5,979 nt of DNA from a virus (Duplodnaviria > Heunggongvirae > Uroviricota > Caudoviricetes): the IMG/VR virus record IMGVR_UViG_2690316311_000021, one strand, 5' to 3'. The notes beneath the pieces are model-generated. The model saw nothing but the letters and a program-made list of their open reading frames with translations, did not search any database and was not told where the DNA came from. A program made the position numbers and the translations under genes. Below are positions 207-5,596 of this stretch, piece after piece; position 1 is the stretch's first letter, and each line of letters starts with the position of its first letter.

Positions 207-563
207 TCACTTGTTGCCTCCTTTGCGAAGCTCTGCGACTAACTCGTCACATATGTGCGTCAAAGAGCAAAGTTTGATTGCTGGATGTTCGCGCACCATC
301 TCCACACCCTGCGCCCGCAATTCTGCCAGAAAAGCGTAGGGGTCAGTTTTTTCACTGTGGTACATGGCATCATAGATAATCATTGCAGCGACACCTGCCT
401 GTCCTGCATCTGTGACGGATATATGCTCAAGGGCTACGGCCATTGCGTGTTTCAACCTCTCATTTTCCACCTCAAGCACCACACGATTAGCCTCCAGCTC
501 TTCTATGCGTTTTTTTGCTGCTCCCAGCTCAACACGCAGCTCCTGATAGTTAATCTCGCTCAT
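207..563 (-). CDS. Hypothetical phage protein, 118 aa, with a predicted N-terminal coiled coil
   Basis: ATG at 563 is preceded by GGGAGGAAGGAGA (strong SD). Its start overlaps the stop of the upstream 74-aa ORF in an ATGA arrangement. N-terminal sequence is a heptad-like E/L/R-rich stretch (ELRVELGAAKKRIEELEANRVVLEVENERLK). No family recognised. Confidence 0.6.
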   Translation of the reverse strand: MSEINYQELRVELGAAKKRIEELEANRVVLEVENERLKHAMAVALEHISVTDAGQAGVAAMIIYDAMYHSEKTDPYAFLAELRAQGVEMVREHPAIKLCSLTHICDELVAELRKGGNK

Positions 564-784
564 TCTCCTTCCTCCCGCACTGCTGTTTTATATGCCCGAA
601 GCACATGCGATGTTTTTCCTGACACAGTGCTTCTCAGAAAGAAAATTCCACTGGTGTTTATTACCAGATACGGGTCAGCAAGACGCAGCATATCCAGTAT
701 GTGATTATGTTTTCTTGTTTCCAGCACCGTACTGGAAATAAGCATATGTGACACGGGGCCGAAATCATGATATCTGATTTTCAT
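560..784 (-). CDS. Hypothetical small protein, 74 aa
   Basis: ATG at 784 with a modest SD (AGGGTGA). Stop overlaps the start of the 118-aa gene (ATGA), and it sits 21 bp downstream of the preceding gene in the same operon. No family recognised. Confidence 0.5.
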   Translation of the reverse strand: MKIRYHDFGPVSHMLISSTVLETRKHNHILDMLRLADPYLVINTSGIFFLRSTVSGKTSHVLRAYKTAVREEGE

Positions 785-805: not shown

Positions 806-1504
806 TTACCCGTTATCTCCTGTCGTTATTTTCTGTATGACATCACGATGCTTATTAATTTCCCGCAGCGCGGCGCATAAGCGCTCCCACTTCTGAACCT
901 GACCTTTTGCCCGGCGCAGCTCGCGGTTAGCCACATGCAGCGATGGTAAAATCAGACCATCCGGATGCTTTCTGATGAACGACGACTGTGACTGCACTGT
1001 GACCGCCACACTTTCAGTTTTAATTTCTTCCTGTGTTTCCGCTTCCCGGACTGGTAACGCAACACCTGCCGGCTGAGGAAAGGCTTTACCATCGGTTTCC
1101 GTTACCGATGCAGCTTTCGGCTCTGCCGGTAAATTATCGCCCGGTATGCAGTAACGATATTGACCGTCCTGATTTACGCGAATCAGACGACCTTTGCTGA
1201 CAGCCATCGCCAGTGATGAATTCGCCCGGCGGGAGGTAATCCCGAACATTAACGCCAGTTCGTCAGCCGACTGAGGACCATGCTGTTCAATCGCGTTAAT
1301 CAGCATCTCTGCAGTGGTTTTTGGGGCCGCTTCAGTTGCCTCACTCGTCAGCCACCACATCGACCCCTTGTTATCAGCTTCGCCACGACGCTTCAGCTTC
1401 CAGAGTTCGGTAACAGCATCGTCACGGCTGATTTCAAGACGGGCTGCAATCTCGTGCGACGAGGCTTTTTTCAGTGCTTTCAGTGCGTCAAAAACGGTTT
1501 CCAT
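806..1504 (-). CDS. Hypothetical protein with two predicted winged-helix-like segments and a C-terminal coiled coil (232 aa from ATG 1504; the ORF stays open to ATG 1570, 254 aa)
   Basis: Internal ATG at 1504 has a near-ideal RBS (GGGAGGAAAATTTA-ATG). ATG at 1570 has only AGGA at 2-nt spacing and would overlap the P-like gene by 32 bp. Two segments ([35 protein letters not shown] and [43 protein letters not shown]) look like wHTH recognition units. Confidence 0.65.
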
Positions 1505-1538
1505 TAAATTTTCCTCCCGGTAAAAATTACTTCTCAAC

Positions 1539-2201
1539 TCAGACAAAACCGGCCGCCTTCCGGCGCTCATATTCCTGTTTCAGCAATTCAATTGGCGTTG
1601 GCCCTGGCGGGCGTTTGGGTGCTGCCAGTTGTCGCCGGACTGGCGGAACACTGAGGCCATTACCAACATGCTTTGCCCATTTCGTCAGCTGCCTTTCCAC
1701 AAGCCGTTTTAACTCCCCTTCGGTCATCTGGCGCTCAATCCCCTTTGAACGCATCTCGAGGCAAATGTGGTACAGCACCGGCTGTGGCCACGGGTATTTA
1801 TCACTCCCGTCGTACCGCCAGGATTCATTCCTCCAGCGACGGTATTCCTCCATCACGGCATCCACCGTCAGGCCAAATGGATTTGCCCCGCTCTCCGAAA
1901 TCAACGCCACAAACTCAGCCAGATCCGGAGGCCACGTTTCACCCGCCCGGCAGCGGTCCATGCACCGACGGCAGATCTGCCGGATTTGCTGTTCAGTCAT
2001 CGCGCCAATCTGAGCAATCCAGAGTTTCGACGGCGCAGCCCCGTTCTTCTGAGTCCAGCGGTTCGAATACACCTCCCCCATAAGCTCCCACAGCTTCCAG
2101 GCCGTTTCCGTTGCTGATAAATCCGTTTTCACGTTCCCACTGTTCGCGTGCAGCCCGGATTTCCTGAACTGCCCGTGATGCGGTGCCACCTGGTGCTGCA
2201 T
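1539..2201 (-). CDS. Phage replication protein P-like (DnaB helicase loader); start uncertain (ATG 2201, 2081 or 2000)
   Basis: The C-terminal half resembles lambda P as recalled (ours ...[22 protein letters not shown]... / ...[23 protein letters not shown]; lambda P ...YPDAESYPWKSNAHYWLVTNLYQNMR... / EPVKQLPVMGGRPLNRAQAL). ATG 2201 has an AAGGGGG SD at 6-nt spacing but overlaps the O-like gene by 209 bp. ATG 2000 sits in a GATGACTGA coupling overlap with the O-like stop. Confidence 0.8.
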
Positions 2202-3030
2202 GGCTTACCCCCTTGCTGACTGGTTTTACCTGTGCCCTGACGTGCTGCACGTGGCGGGCAAATTTCTGCTCCCACTGAACCTGCGTGAAAACCTTCCCCT
2301 CCGCCATCCAGTAATCCCGGAATGCGGCAAGCTCAGCAGGTGTAAACTCAGGCTCAGGCAGAGCCATACCCCACACTGCTGCCCGCTGTCGAAAATCCGG
2401 CGACGGTTGCCAGACTCCAGTCATCGGAAATTTCCCGATCGGTTCGCTCAGGCCGTCCAGGTATTCAGGTTCGGCTGTCTGCAACGACGCGTCATTCAAC
2501 TCACCGGTCGTAGCACTCTCGCGCATGCGCGCGTTATGTGTGGGGTTTAATTCTTTATCTGTATCTGTATCTGTCGTGATTTGTCGTGACATATGCGTGA
2601 CGCGTCGTGACTCATCGTGACAATCAGTGTTCTGCTTCCGCAGTCTTTCCCGCTCCCGCTGCGCTCTCTTGCGCTCTGCCGGGGATTTTGCGGTTTGCGA
2701 AACATTACCGTTATCCTCCTTCATCACCTGGCGTTTTTCCCATCCGGAAATAAGATCACCATCCAGAACTCGCCCCTGCATTGCATGCAAAATTGAATCA
2801 ATCACGTCTTCCGTCACATCAAGCGCACTTGCTAAATCTTCCGTCGTGACATCAATGTGACCACGTAGTGACACGCCGTGACATGTCGTGACATTTCGTG
2901 ACGCACTCACCAGAAGGTGGATATACACCGCCATCACTGTTGCGATTGGCTGTCCTGAGACCCTGGCAATGGTTCGCCATTTGGGATCATTTGGCATGTC
3001 ATGCCACAATCTGAGCCAGGCATTAGCCAT
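1993..3030 (-). CDS. Phage replication initiation protein (O-like replisome organiser, possibly with a DnaT-like C-terminal region), 345 aa
   Basis: The long ORF occupies the position immediately upstream of the P-like gene. ATG at 3030 is preceded by GAGGTGAGT (SD); the ORF track starts at GTG 3036. The coding sequence contains two phased GTGAC repeat arrays (see repeat features), as in lambdoid phages where ori lies inside the initiator gene. The DnaT-like assignment is from memory and tentative. Confidence 0.8.
   Translation of the reverse strand: MANAWLRLWHDMPNDPKWRTIARVSGQPIATVMAVYIHLLVSASRNVTTCHGVSLRGHIDVTTEDLASALDVTEDVIDSILHAMQGRVLDGDLISGWEKRQVMKEDNGNVSQTAKSPAERKRAQRERERLRKQNTDCHDESRRVTHMSRQITTDTDTDKELNPTHNARMRESATTGELNDASLQTAEPEYLDGLSEPIGKFPMTGVWQPSPDFRQRAAVWGMALPEPEFTPAELAAFRDYWMAEGKVFTQVQWEQKFARHVQHVRAQVKPVSKGVSHAAPGGTASRAVQEIRAAREQWERENGFISNGNGLEAVGAYGGGVFEPLDSEERGCAVETLDCSDWRDD
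2556..2573. repeat. (TATCTG)x3 hexanucleotide tandem repeat in an AT-rich tract next to iteron array 1; encodes TDTDTD on the minus strand
   Basis: Direct reading: tatctgtatctgtatctg. The surrounding 2541-2573 is AT-rich relative to the rest of the gene. Confidence 0.9.
2574..2621. repeat. Iteron-like array 1: five direct (T)CGTGA(C) repeats at 10-11 bp spacing; candidate replication-origin iterons
   Basis: CGTGA(C/T) cores start at 2575, 2585, 2596, 2606 and 2616 (gtcgtgat / gtcgtgac / gcgtgac / tcgtgac / tcgtgac). The repeats fall in all three codon phases of the O-like gene, which argues for DNA-level selection rather than an amino-acid repeat. Confidence 0.55.
2845..2902. repeat. Iteron-like array 2: six direct GTGAC repeats at 10-11 bp spacing
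   Basis: GTGAC at 2846, 2857, 2868, 2878, 2888 and 2898 (spacings 11, 11, 10, 10, 10). Same core as array 1, about 225 bp away, also inside the O-like gene and not in codon phase. Confidence 0.55.
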
Positions 3031-3098
3031 ACTCACCTCATCTGATACCGAACTTTACCCTCGAACATCCGGAATAAATCCGGCATGAATATTGTTGG

Positions 3099-3524
3099 TC
3101 AATGCACGACAACAGCATTACCAGGCTGACCACCACTGTTAGTCAGGGTGCCCCAGGCGATCGCCGCTGCGACAAAATCATCCACATCTTTCACCAGCCG
3201 ATCCCTCCGTTCGACGATCTCACGGTAATATTCAGAGCTGTGACTGCGCATACGGGCCACCAGCAGAGGCGGCATTGCCTTTTCGATCGCCGGTAACAGA
3301 GCCTGAATTTTTTCAACAGCATCAGGGGTGTCTTTATCCAGCCAACGGAAAATTTTCTGGGTATTACGAGCCAGGGCTTCCGGATGGCTGTCGTCGTACA
3401 GTTCCGGGAACGTCATCCCCAGCTCGAAATAAGTCCGGGCTATTTCAGCTGCAGGAACTTTCTCACCGTCCGGATAGGCCCAGGCATTGATCGCCATGCG
3501 GATGTGCTCATGTTTGATTTTCAT
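3099..3524 (-). CDS. ydaT: YdaT-family protein (DUF1019; proposed CII-like regulator in cryptic prophages), 141 aa
   Basis: N-terminus MKIKHEHI... matches YdaT proteins of Rac/CP-933P-type prophages as recalled. It lies immediately downstream of the cro-like gene, its ATG (3524) overlaps that gene's stop (ATGA), and it is preceded by an AAGGGGG SD. Confidence 0.75.
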   Translation of the reverse strand: MKIKHEHIRMAINAWAYPDGEKVPAAEIARTYFELGMTFPELYDDSHPEALARNTQKIFRWLDKDTPDAVEKIQALLPAIEKAMPPLLVARMRSHSSEYYREIVERRDRLVKDVDDFVAAAIAWGTLTNSGGQPGNAVVVH

Positions 3525-3748
3525 GAATCCCCCTTTCCTTCGCCCTGAGTGGTATCCTTCTTTTTGTAAAGTTCTGGGTTCAAAGATAATTTCCCCTTGG
3601 AGTATGCAGCAGCTTCCGCAGCCCTCCCCTTCGGAACTATTTCACCAGGACGCTTACGCCACATGTAAATAGCTTCGCGGGTTATCCCATAAAAATCGGC
3701 AACCCTCTGAACAGAACCAAAAAACTGGACAAGTTCATCAACTCGCAT
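3521..3748 (-). CDS. dicC: Cro-like HTH regulator, DicC/YdaS family, 75 aa
   Basis: Strong RBS (AGGAGG-TAAA-ATG). It is divergent from the repressor gene. The sequence LVQFFGSVQRVADFYGITREAIYMWRK has the same pattern as DicC (as recalled) and lambda Cro ([26 protein letters not shown]). Confidence 0.85.
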   Translation of the reverse strand: MRVDELVQFFGSVQRVADFYGITREAIYMWRKRPGEIVPKGRAAEAAAYSKGKLSLNPELYKKKDTTQGEGKGDS

Positions 3749-3826: not shown

Positions 3827-3842
3827 CAATTTGCAGGAGAAA

Positions 3843-4490
3843 ATGATGGAAAGCCTTGGCATCAGGCTTAAGAGACTTAGAAAAGATAAGGGGCTGACCC
3901 AAGTAGAACTGGGTAAGCTTTCAGGCGTGACTGGGGTTACTATAGGGTACTGGGAGAAAGATCTAAACGAACCAGGTAGCAAAGCTCTAAGTAAGTTAGC
4001 CCAGGCATTAGGAACTACTGAGTCCTATCTCCTATATGGAGTATCGTCTCCTGAATTATCTTTTGTACAAAGTACCTCAGGCACCAAGATCCCCTACCTT
4101 TCGTGGGGTGAGGCGATTTCTTTCCTAATCTTAAAAGGAGAGAAAACAATGGGAAATGTCGATAGGATCACCACATTCTTTGATGTCGAGGAAGGTGATT
4201 TTGCCGTTTCAATGCCTGATGACACAATGCATAACCCATCAGGATCACCGAGTATCCCAGTTGGTGCTACTGTGATCCTAAGGCCAGGAGAAAGTTATAA
4301 AAATGGCAGCATCGTCGCTGTAATAGTTCCGGATCCGCTTAAAAATGAACCATCTATGACTATAAAGAAATTAGTTATTGATGGGAAGCTTGTGTATTTA
4401 AGCCCTCTCAATCCACGCTATCAGTCATCCTTACTTACACCAGAGTGTAAAATTGTTGCCGTAGCAAAAGGTGTACAGTTCAACTTATAA
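3843..4490 (+). CDS. CI/C2-type prophage repressor: N-terminal HTH (XRE) plus C-terminal S24 LexA-like peptidase domain (215 aa from ATG 3843; alternative ATG 3846)
   Basis: SD AGGAG at 3835-3839. The N-terminus (LTQVELGKLSGVTGVTIGYWEKDLNEPGSKALSKLAQAL) is a classic HTH. The C-terminal region aligns with lambda CI and P22 C2 as recalled: a Ser in ...FAVSM... corresponds to the catalytic Ser of GNSM/GDSM, ...MTIKKLVID... to the catalytic Lys (FTFKKLIRD), and ...YLSPLNPRY... to LQPLNPQYP. Confidence 0.9.
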   Translation: MMESLGIRLKRLRKDKGLTQVELGKLSGVTGVTIGYWEKDLNEPGSKALSKLAQALGTTESYLLYGVSSPELSFVQSTSGTKIPYLSWGEAISFLILKGEKTMGNVDRITTFFDVEEGDFAVSMPDDTMHNPSGSPSIPVGATVILRPGESYKNGSIVAVIVPDPLKNEPSMTIKKLVIDGKLVYLSPLNPRYQSSLLTPECKIVAVAKGVQFNL

Positions 4491-4510
4491 CCCGCCACGT
4501 CCTTTACTTG

Positions 4511-4537
4511 AGGTCGGCAATGCCGACCTTTTTTTTT
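4511..4537 (+). terminator. Rho-independent terminator downstream of the repressor gene
   Basis: Perfect inverted repeat AGGTCGGCA / TGCCGACCT (4511-4519 / 4521-4529) followed by a run of nine T (4529-4537), 21 bp after the repressor stop. Confidence 0.85.
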
Positions 4538-5180: not shown

Positions 5181-5238
5181 TTTCTGGTGACGTTTGGCGG
5201 TATCAGTTTTACTCCGTGACTGCTCTGCCGCCCTTTTT
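5181..5238 (+). ncRNA. dicF: DicF small regulatory RNA (antisense inhibitor of ftsZ translation), 53 nt plus U-tail
   Basis: 5181-5233 (tttctggtgacgtttggcggtatcagttttactccgtgactgctctgccgccc) followed by TTTTT matches the E. coli DicF sequence as I recall it, and lies immediately upstream of dicB as in Qin. Confidence 0.8.
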
Positions 5239-5407
5239 AAAGTGAATTTTGTGATGCGGTGAATGCGGCTGAGCGCACGCGGAACAGTTAAAACCAAAAA
5301 CAGTGTTATGGGTGGATTCTCTGTATCCGGCGTTAATTGTTAACTGGTTAACGTCACCTGGAGGCACCAGGCACTGCATCACAAAATTCATTGTTGAGGA
5401 CGCGATA

Positions 5408-5596
5408 ATGGAAACGTTATTACCAAACGTTAATACGTCTGAAGGTTGTTTTGAAATTGGTGTCACTATCAGTAACCCTGTATTTACTGAAGATGCCATT
5501 AACAAGAGAAAACACGAACGGGAGTTATTAAATAAAATATGCATTCTTTCAATGCTGGCCCGTTTACGTCCGATACAAAAAGGATGCTGGCAATGA
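5408..5596 (+). CDS. dicB: DicB cell-division inhibitor, 62 aa
   Basis: ATG 5408 with GAGGA SD at 7-nt spacing. The translation METLLPNVNTSEGCFEIGVTISNPVFTEDAINKRKHERELLNKICILSMLARLRPIQKGCWQ is nearly identical to recalled E. coli DicB (MKTLLPNVNTSEGCFEIGVTISNPVFTEDAINKRK...). The ORF-track entry 5303..5596 is an upstream extension in the same frame. Confidence 0.85.
   Translation: METLLPNVNTSEGCFEIGVTISNPVFTEDAINKRKHERELLNKICILSMLARLRPIQKGCWQ

Follow-up and report, generated by a model that had tools for sequence, protein, structure and literature searches.

The DUF1627/YdaW-family gene behind the helicase loader of an Escherichia coli lambdoid prophage: start codon, domain map and candidate roles

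Which protein does a lambdoid prophage encode directly behind its helicase loader gene, and what might that protein do? The question is raised by the virus record IMGVR_UViG_2690316311_000021, of which a stretch of 5,979 nucleotides (nt), here called the window, was analysed at its full length. The window covers the genes for immunity and replication of a lambdoid (Rac/Qin-like) prophage, and several E. coli chromosomes of the Shiga-toxigenic type match it with 100% identity. The first-pass annotation had placed there, just after the P-like gene on the minus strand, a tandem winged-helix-like protein of unknown function, at the position which ren occupies in lambda. We found that this protein is almost certainly a member of the catalogued YdaW/DUF1627 family and that it has, as part of the same statement, an architecture of two winged-helix (wH) domains, a disordered linker and a conserved C-terminal module.

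Gene call and family membership

The open reading frame (ORF) of the gene offers two start codons, and the features that bear on the choice are as follows (aa, amino acids).

806-1570, minus strand: whole ORF, 254 aa when read from ATG 1570
806-1504, minus strand: DUF1627/YdaW-family coding sequence (CDS), 699 nt, 232 aa, ATG 1504, stop codon 806-808
1513-1517, minus strand: Shine-Dalgarno sequence GGAGG, 8 nt upstream of ATG 1504
1505-1570, minus strand: rejected N-terminal extension, 22 codons from ATG 1570

The ambiguity between 1504 and 1570 had already been flagged, and it is settled as 1504 by the GGAGG sequence, the starts of the homologues and RefSeq. The RefSeq CDS of 699 nt (WP_000450612.1, "DUF1627 domain-containing protein") is identical to the 232-aa product, and in an alignment of 47 sequences the full-length homologues begin with METV. 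The codon of this methionine was ATG in 90 of 90 related loci; GGAGG was present within all seven of the commonest upstream 16-mers, which account for 79 of the 90 loci; and an in-frame upstream ATG was absent from 67. When the long form was used, the PHROG 630 alignment began only at residue 23. The 254-aa reading was rejected on the RefSeq CDS, the METV starts, the loci lacking an upstream ATG and the PHROG 630 alignment. The gene is 806-1504, with ATG 1504 and 232 aa, and the stretch 1505-1570 reads as an alternative frame of the P 3' end plus the 34-nt intergenic spacer, outside the protein.

The ratio of nonsynonymous to synonymous divergence (dN/dS) against six homologues of 76-93% identity was 0.12-0.47 in each of the four regions of the gene, and against three more distant homologues it was mostly 0.2-0.55. 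The sole outlier, 0.94, came from the linker in the most divergent pair, and the linker otherwise gave 0.2-0.5. The low ratios in all four regions argue for a functional gene, linker included, and indicate that purifying selection acts on every region.

Synonymous divergence was uneven along the gene. At codons ~105-185 (window 950-1190), synonymous-codon identity with 34 diverged homologues was 0.83-0.90, versus 0.66-0.80 elsewhere in the gene, and pairwise dS also differed by segment, being 0.03-0.07 over the N-terminal three quarters and 0.58 in the C-terminal module when the homologue of locus L019 was compared. This may reflect mosaic recombination within the gene or an embedded element; an Rfam scan revealed no RNA family within it.

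The product matched Pfam DUF1627 (PF07789) with an E-value of 3e-78 (261.4 bits, gathering cutoff 28.1 bits). All the profile positions (1-155 of 155) cover residues 72-226 of the 232-aa protein, and the first wH domain (wH1) lies outside the Pfam model. PHROG 630, annotated as function unknown, matched with E about 1e-110, residues 1-229 on profile positions 1-248 of 253. Membership in the Pfam YdaW/DUF1627 family was judged by the score threshold, by collinearity over the full length and by gene position: the score lies above the threshold, the collinearity includes wH1, and the gene is downstream of a loader gene. The earlier label "protein of unknown function" does not hold as far as it implied an orphan, considering Pfam PF07789, PHROG 630, the RefSeq annotation and a presence in roughly 40% of the complete E. 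coli genomes.

That last figure comes from megablast: of 5426 complete E. coli genomes, 2259 had a match, and a single genome carried up to 7 copies. Clustering of the family at 90% identity gave 2269 clusters, and at 50% identity no more than 148 representatives remained among 1.84 billion proteins, which characterises a family of many copies and narrow diversity. Relatives are known from Escherichia, Shigella, Citrobacter and Salmonella, and they are carried by functional phages such as Rac-SA53, Shigella phage 75/02 Stx, POCJ13 and PhiR5_2. A profile search of genome contigs with a narrower alignment returned only six loci (Escherichia, Citrobacter, Salmonella and one metagenome-assembled genome). 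In the literature, DUF1627 is also named as a conserved neighbour of the PasA/PasC small RNAs (sRNAs).

The nearest named relative is YdaW of the Rac prophage. The aa identity of the window protein is 69% with Rac YdaW in its full-length form (MN652886) and 54% with the fragment from K-12, and the window protein and Rac YdaW share the domain order, the METV start behind GGAGG and the place after the loader gene (ydaV in Rac). They differ in that the window loader is of the lambda-P type whereas the Rac loader is of the DnaC type, and the window copy has QSSF before the C-terminal helix where the family has (I/L)PSF. The K-12 YdaW is a truncated allele of 186 aa that lacks the linker and the C-terminal module because a Rac deletion fuses ydaW to rzpR/trkG, whereas the window copy is intact; in the K-12 Rac prophage (locus L006, 3753-4313) the homology stops at about residue 151. 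Therefore, published data on K-12 "YdaW", including a screen for blockers of the toxin RcaT, concern a wH-only fragment.

Domain architecture and comparison with other proteins

An AlphaFold2 model was built from the 47-sequence alignment (mean predicted local distance difference test score, pLDDT, 77), and the charge and conservation of each column were calculated from 42 non-redundant family members. The model divides the protein into four parts.

1346-1504, minus strand: wH1, residues 1-53, pLDDT 88-94, topology H-E-H-H-E-E
1142-1321, minus strand: winged-helix domain 2 (wH2), residues 62-121, pLDDT >90, basic, Ren-like
989-1141, minus strand: disordered acidic Pro-rich linker, residues 122-172, pLDDT <50 at residues 128-165
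809-988, minus strand: conserved C-terminal module (C-module), residues 173-232, with a helix at 189-228 of pLDDT 85-93

Two winged helix-turn-helix units and a C-terminal helix, as first proposed, are thus seen in the model, and no enzymatic motif was found, again as proposed. The two wH domains differ in charge. wH1 is acidic (family median net charge -2) with core residues W50 and L34, it matches PHROG 16668 and 633, and its helix 3 carries the conserved acidic residues D29 and E36. An acidic "recognition" helix makes wH1 unlike a canonical DNA reader, and the domain is probably a protein-contact module. wH2 is basic (+3.5), and its conserved residues include R92 and S96, where helix 3 begins, and the wing residue R109; judging from this charge and the conserved Arg/Ser/Arg, it is probably the nucleic-acid-binding unit. 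The idea of a DNA-binding protein suits wH2, which looks canonical, and not the acidic wH1. Clear homology to a characterised housekeeping protein lacking such a fold, which would have spoken against the idea, was not found.

Across the family the linker has 25-68 residues and a median net charge of -5. The C-module has a strongly basic net charge (+7), with R197 conserved to 93% and with R198, K200 and K218 as further basic residues. Its helix of 40 residues is amphipathic, with heptad-like hydrophobic residues every 3-4 positions, and its motifs are DxLIxP and one of the (I/L)PSF type. Family members have one, two or three wH units and the C-module is kept in all of them, so that the C-module is the defining part of the family. 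When the C-module profile was searched against the PDB, the sole match was the oligomerisation coiled coil of BCR, a weak one (E 0.008); the single protein sequence gave nothing meaningful there (chorismate mutase, E 0.29). The structural matches of the model include the tandem wH proteins ScpB, ESCRT-II and UFL1/DDRGK1.

Several other families were compared. MarR/ArsR-type regulators, AspA and Zalpha domains gave profile matches with E 2e-4 to 1e-2; they resemble DUF1627 in their compact wH, but all stayed under the curated family cutoffs, and they lack the combination of tandem wH, disordered linker and C-helix. The MarR family was rejected, since MarR_2 scored 16.6 bits against a cutoff of 27 and the wH units are bare three-helix units without flanking dimerisation helices; HTH_24 scored 13 bits against 21.9. 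The AlkZ/YcaQ-like glycosylases (PF06224) reached 25.0 bits against 25.9, the alignment being limited to a wH repeat at profile positions 159-242 of 329, and were also rejected; the structural match to AlkX/YcaQ had a template modelling (TM) score of 0.26. The Zalpha triad is Asn173, Tyr177 and Trp195 in ADAR1 numbering. Tyr177 aligns with Ala99, which is Ala in the family consensus as well, and the aromatic residue of the wing (Y118) is all that remains of the triad; Zalpha was rejected, and Z-DNA binding is not expected because of this replacement. Among the PADLOC defence models, only SWIM_XIII appeared (E 1e-3, 15.7 bits, 92 residues of a 509-position profile), which is no real match. H-NS-like proteins offer an analogy for the multivalent binding of low specificity proposed below, in that they combine an oligomerisation coiled coil, a flexible linker and a small nucleic-acid-binding domain; however, their domain order is reversed, the folds are unrelated, there is no sequence similarity, and oligomerisation in DUF1627 is only a prediction.

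Operon position and possible role

The gene directly upstream of DUF1627 is the following.

1539-2201, minus strand: lambda-P-type helicase loader gene (Pfam Phage_lambda_P, E 4e-16; PHROG 109 "P-like helicase loader", E 5e-62)

These two profiles bear out the P identity given in the first-pass annotation. In the window the P stop codon and the DUF1627 start are separated by 34 nt, and among 78 loci with an upstream neighbour the DUF1627 start was located 21-34 nt past the loader stop in 77, as expected of the proposed accessory slot right after the helicase loader; annotated phage records show the same placement. The loaders at these 77 loci were of two types (46 lambda-P and 31 DnaC), and the initiators at DUF1627 loci were of at least three types with unrelated N-terminal domains. 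Through this pairing with varied loaders and initiators, DUF1627 behaves as an independent accessory module.

The gene has a strong ribosome-binding site of its own. We found no convincing promoter or terminator between P and DUF1627, and such matches in the window occurred at chance frequency (8 promoter-like sites versus 6.8 expected). The 34-nt spacer showed no unusual structure (z-score 0.43), and there was no conserved inverted repeat or operator-like site beside the gene. In Rac, ydaU-W were derepressed along with ydaS/T once racR was silenced (bioRxiv 10.64898/2026.09.06.749655). Considering the derepression in Rac and the lack of signals of its own, the DUF1627 gene is probably part of the repressor-controlled early rightward operon.

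PHROG 142, "Ren-like exclusion protein", was matched by 38 of the 47 family members (best E 6e-9), and by the window protein with E 1.3e-3 over residues 57-116; PHROGs 1687 and 633 are secondary matches common to lambda Ren and the DUF1627 family. In hhalign the resemblance was weak: wH2 aligned with the wH of Ren at a probability of 75% (residues 4-65, E 2.5e-5, 61 columns), and a profile alignment against Ren alone gave 36%. Ren and the DUF1627 wH unit probably share ancestry within a group of phage wH proteins. Both are small, non-enzymatic wH proteins encoded just after the helicase loader in the pR operon. However, Ren contains a single wH, lacks a long disordered linker and carries a different C-terminal motif, N-x-I-F-K-E-C-R...RVLA, and membership of DUF1627 in the Ren family was rejected because only the wH aligns and the corresponding motif N-x-I-x-x-E-C-R...RVLA is absent. 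In 36 related loci the next gene after DUF1627 encodes a Ren-like protein (LygF) with the Ren C-terminal ECR...RVLA motif. The two genes are hence not alternatives, and DUF1627 is an extra gene between the loader and ren; of the earlier comparison with the ren slot, the position after P holds and the replacement of ren does not. The Ren phenotype is reportedly escape from Rex exclusion, as Toothman and Herskowitz are said to have described in 1980.

From these features we might speculate on the following role. DUF1627 would be transcribed with cro, cII, O and P from the early rightward promoter, so as to be made on induction or infection and be silent in the lysogen. The C-terminal helix would oligomerise the protein or dock it on a partner, and the flexible linkers would present several wH units, giving multivalent nucleic-acid binding with little sequence specificity; wH2 would contact nucleic acid and wH1, more probably, protein. 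DUF1627 would then be a dispensable accessory of early lytic development, and its likeliest role would be to shield the replicating phage from abortive-infection or exclusion functions of the host or of prophages, as Ren does. The whole explanation, that is, identity and architecture plus an early accessory or counter-defence mechanism, is offered tentatively and may well be wrong in part; its mechanistic part, considered alone, is doubtful. In a TIC/TAC overexpression screen (bioRxiv 10.1101/2020.06.22.160242), K-12 ydaW was listed as one of the prophage genes that block the retron-Sen2 toxin RcaT. A further step, which we regard as quite improbable, would be that DUF1627/YdaW proteins form a counter-defence class related to Ren, whose wH units neutralise abortive-infection effectors (RcaT or Rex-like systems, for example) or shield their nucleic-acid triggers and whose C-helix assembles multivalent oligomers; such a class would explain why the gene accompanies ren where the replication operon ends, why the number of wH units varies and why a wH-only fragment was listed as an RcaT blocker in the screen.

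Several points weigh against the main explanation. The similarity to Ren covers no more than ~60 residues, in a fold that is very common, and for the window protein it is marginal (E 1e-3); the C-terminal modules of the two are unrelated. ScpB, ESCRT-II and UFL1/DDRGK1, the tandem wH matches, bind proteins and not DNA. The RcaT-blocker result comes from a single overexpression screen that also caught unrelated regulators and chaperones, and it concerns the truncated allele; our literature search on the family found no functional study of full-length members. Oligomerisation by the C-module is something we infer only, from helix length, heptad-like spacing and the weak BCR match (E 0.008). In addition, the tight linkage to the loader gene would equally fit a role in replication.

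The best surviving alternative, though unlikely, is a dimeric or tetrameric wH transcription factor that recognises specific sequences and regulates nin-region, late or host genes. PHROGs 633 and 1687 are both labelled "transcriptional regulator", YdaW carries the EcoCyc-style annotation "putative DNA-binding transcriptional regulator" and stands in a list of E. coli transcription factors of unknown function (PMC9308461), R92, S96 and R109 of wH2 are conserved, and the C-helix could give a dimer for palindromic sites. However, every regulator family scored under its curated cutoff, and the most conserved part is the C-module and not a recognition helix, that of wH1 being acidic. One to three wH units would be unusual for an operator-specific protein, a long acidic disordered linker is atypical, and conserved inverted repeats or operator-like sites are missing next to the gene.

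Binding to the GTGAC arrays, which had been suggested for the protein, is disfavoured. The arrays (GTGAC read on the plus strand) lie inside the O-like gene at 2586-2621 (4 copies) and 2846-2902 (6 copies), with a spacing of 10-11 nt, and the window contains 26 GTGAC matches versus 10.2 expected. They were present in 39 of 39 loci with an initiator of the window's ANAWLRLW type and in none of the 18 loci whose initiators belong to four other named types, although several of these 18 loci encode a DUF1627 protein 91-93% identical to the window copy. The arrays follow the initiator and not DUF1627, and are probably the origin iterons of the ANAWLRLW-type initiator. Two further GTGAC motifs, 11 nt apart, were observed within the DUF1627 gene itself at 988-1003. 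A sequence-specific regulator or an origin-binding factor is rated less likely than a counter-defence accessory.

A replication accessory or adaptor acting with the initiator, the loader or DnaB, for example with the C-module linking phage DNA to the helicase complex or to some host factor, is rather unlikely. The constant 21-34 nt distance from the loader gene in 77 of 78 loci, kept across two unrelated loader types, speaks for it. Tandem wH is a recurrent fold among replication-loading factors such as Cdt1, which is a loose analogy. Against it, lambda replicates with O and P alone and has an O-P-ren-ninB stretch without a DUF1627 gene, and many other lambdoid phages likewise replicate without it. 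Near-identical DUF1627 proteins (91-93%) stand beside different initiators and both loader types, which argues that there is no co-evolution with a phage replication partner. The protein resembles none of the known primosome parts, DnaD, DnaT and PriB/C included. Co-expression with the replication genes in Rac (bioRxiv 10.64898/2026.09.06.749655) speaks for a replication role.

A superinfection-exclusion or defence gene expressed from the prophage to protect the lysogen against other phages, the exclusion factor of the first-pass annotation, is very unlikely: the gene belongs to a section of lambdoid genomes that is accessory and rich in morons, has the weak PADLOC match to SWIM_XIII (E 1e-3, 15.7 bits) and has one promoter-like hexamer pair at 1537-1508 just upstream of its start, but this site scores 9/12 among a chance number of such sites (8 versus 6.8), the PADLOC match is no real defence match, no effector domain (nuclease, transmembrane segment or NTPase) was found, and the gene is inside the repressor-controlled early operon and silent in Rac until racR is silenced.

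Other features of the window and wider meaning

The remaining annotated features of the window were these.

3831-4490, plus strand: LexA/CI-type repressor gene
3521-3748, minus strand: Cro-like gene
3099-3524, minus strand: YdaT/CII-like gene
1993-3036, minus strand: O-like initiator gene with a DnaT-like domain
560-784, minus strand: PHROG-1001 ORF, 74 aa, downstream of DUF1627
207-563, minus strand: coiled-coil ORF, 118 aa, with Ead/Ea22-like C-terminal similarity (PHROG 492, E 7e-24)

The PHROG-1001 ORF and the Ead/Ea22-like ORF overlap by 4 nt and stand where many relatives have the Ren-like (LygF) gene. In the closest unrearranged genome (locus L001, 4928-6084) the transposase gene of IS600, an insertion sequence (IS) of the IS3 family, ends within the window, ~80 nt from its left edge (1-about 85), and in other 100%-matching genomes the window region is broken into 2-3 pieces by IS600. 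The placement of IS600 indicates that an IS element interrupts the nin region beyond the Ead/Ea22-like ORF.

Read from ATG 2201, the P-type loader ORF has 220 aa and shares 209 nt (1993-2201, minus strand) with the 3' end of the O-like gene; the RefSeq P has only 153 aa, with a start at about position 2000. The PHROG 109 alignment begins at residue 20 of the long P ORF, and lambda P residues 94-202 align on residues 85-192; these alignments imply the long P N-terminus. PHROG 15931 (482 positions) runs collinearly through O into P, as would be expected if there were O-P fusions. The overlap may reflect a mis-annotated start, dual coding or frameshifting.

On the plus strand, a terminator-like hairpin was found at 4510-4530, right after the repressor stop, with a 9-bp stem (6 GC pairs), a 3-nt loop and a T run. 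The antisense sRNA DicF is located at 5182-5233 (plus strand; Rfam RF00039, 76.7 bits versus a 48-bit threshold), followed by a sub-threshold STnc100-like match at 5231-5440 (plus strand; 35.7 bits versus 47), and dicB is annotated just downstream in the corresponding RefSeq region. Through the DicF match and the dicB annotation, we conclude that the prophage carries a dicF-dicB cell-division-inhibition module.

The DUF1627/YdaW family was already known, and the additions made here are that the start codon is settled, the domains are mapped and the GTGAC arrays are excluded as a target; the first-pass observation is confirmed overall and its interpretation is supported in part. Few uncharacterised early genes are as widespread in the lambdoid prophages of E. 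coli and Shigella as DUF1627, which is also present in Shiga toxin (Stx)-converting phages. If a counter-defence or replication-accessory role were true, it would bear on the success of Stx and Rac-like prophages after induction, and it could also illuminate the mechanism of lambda Ren.

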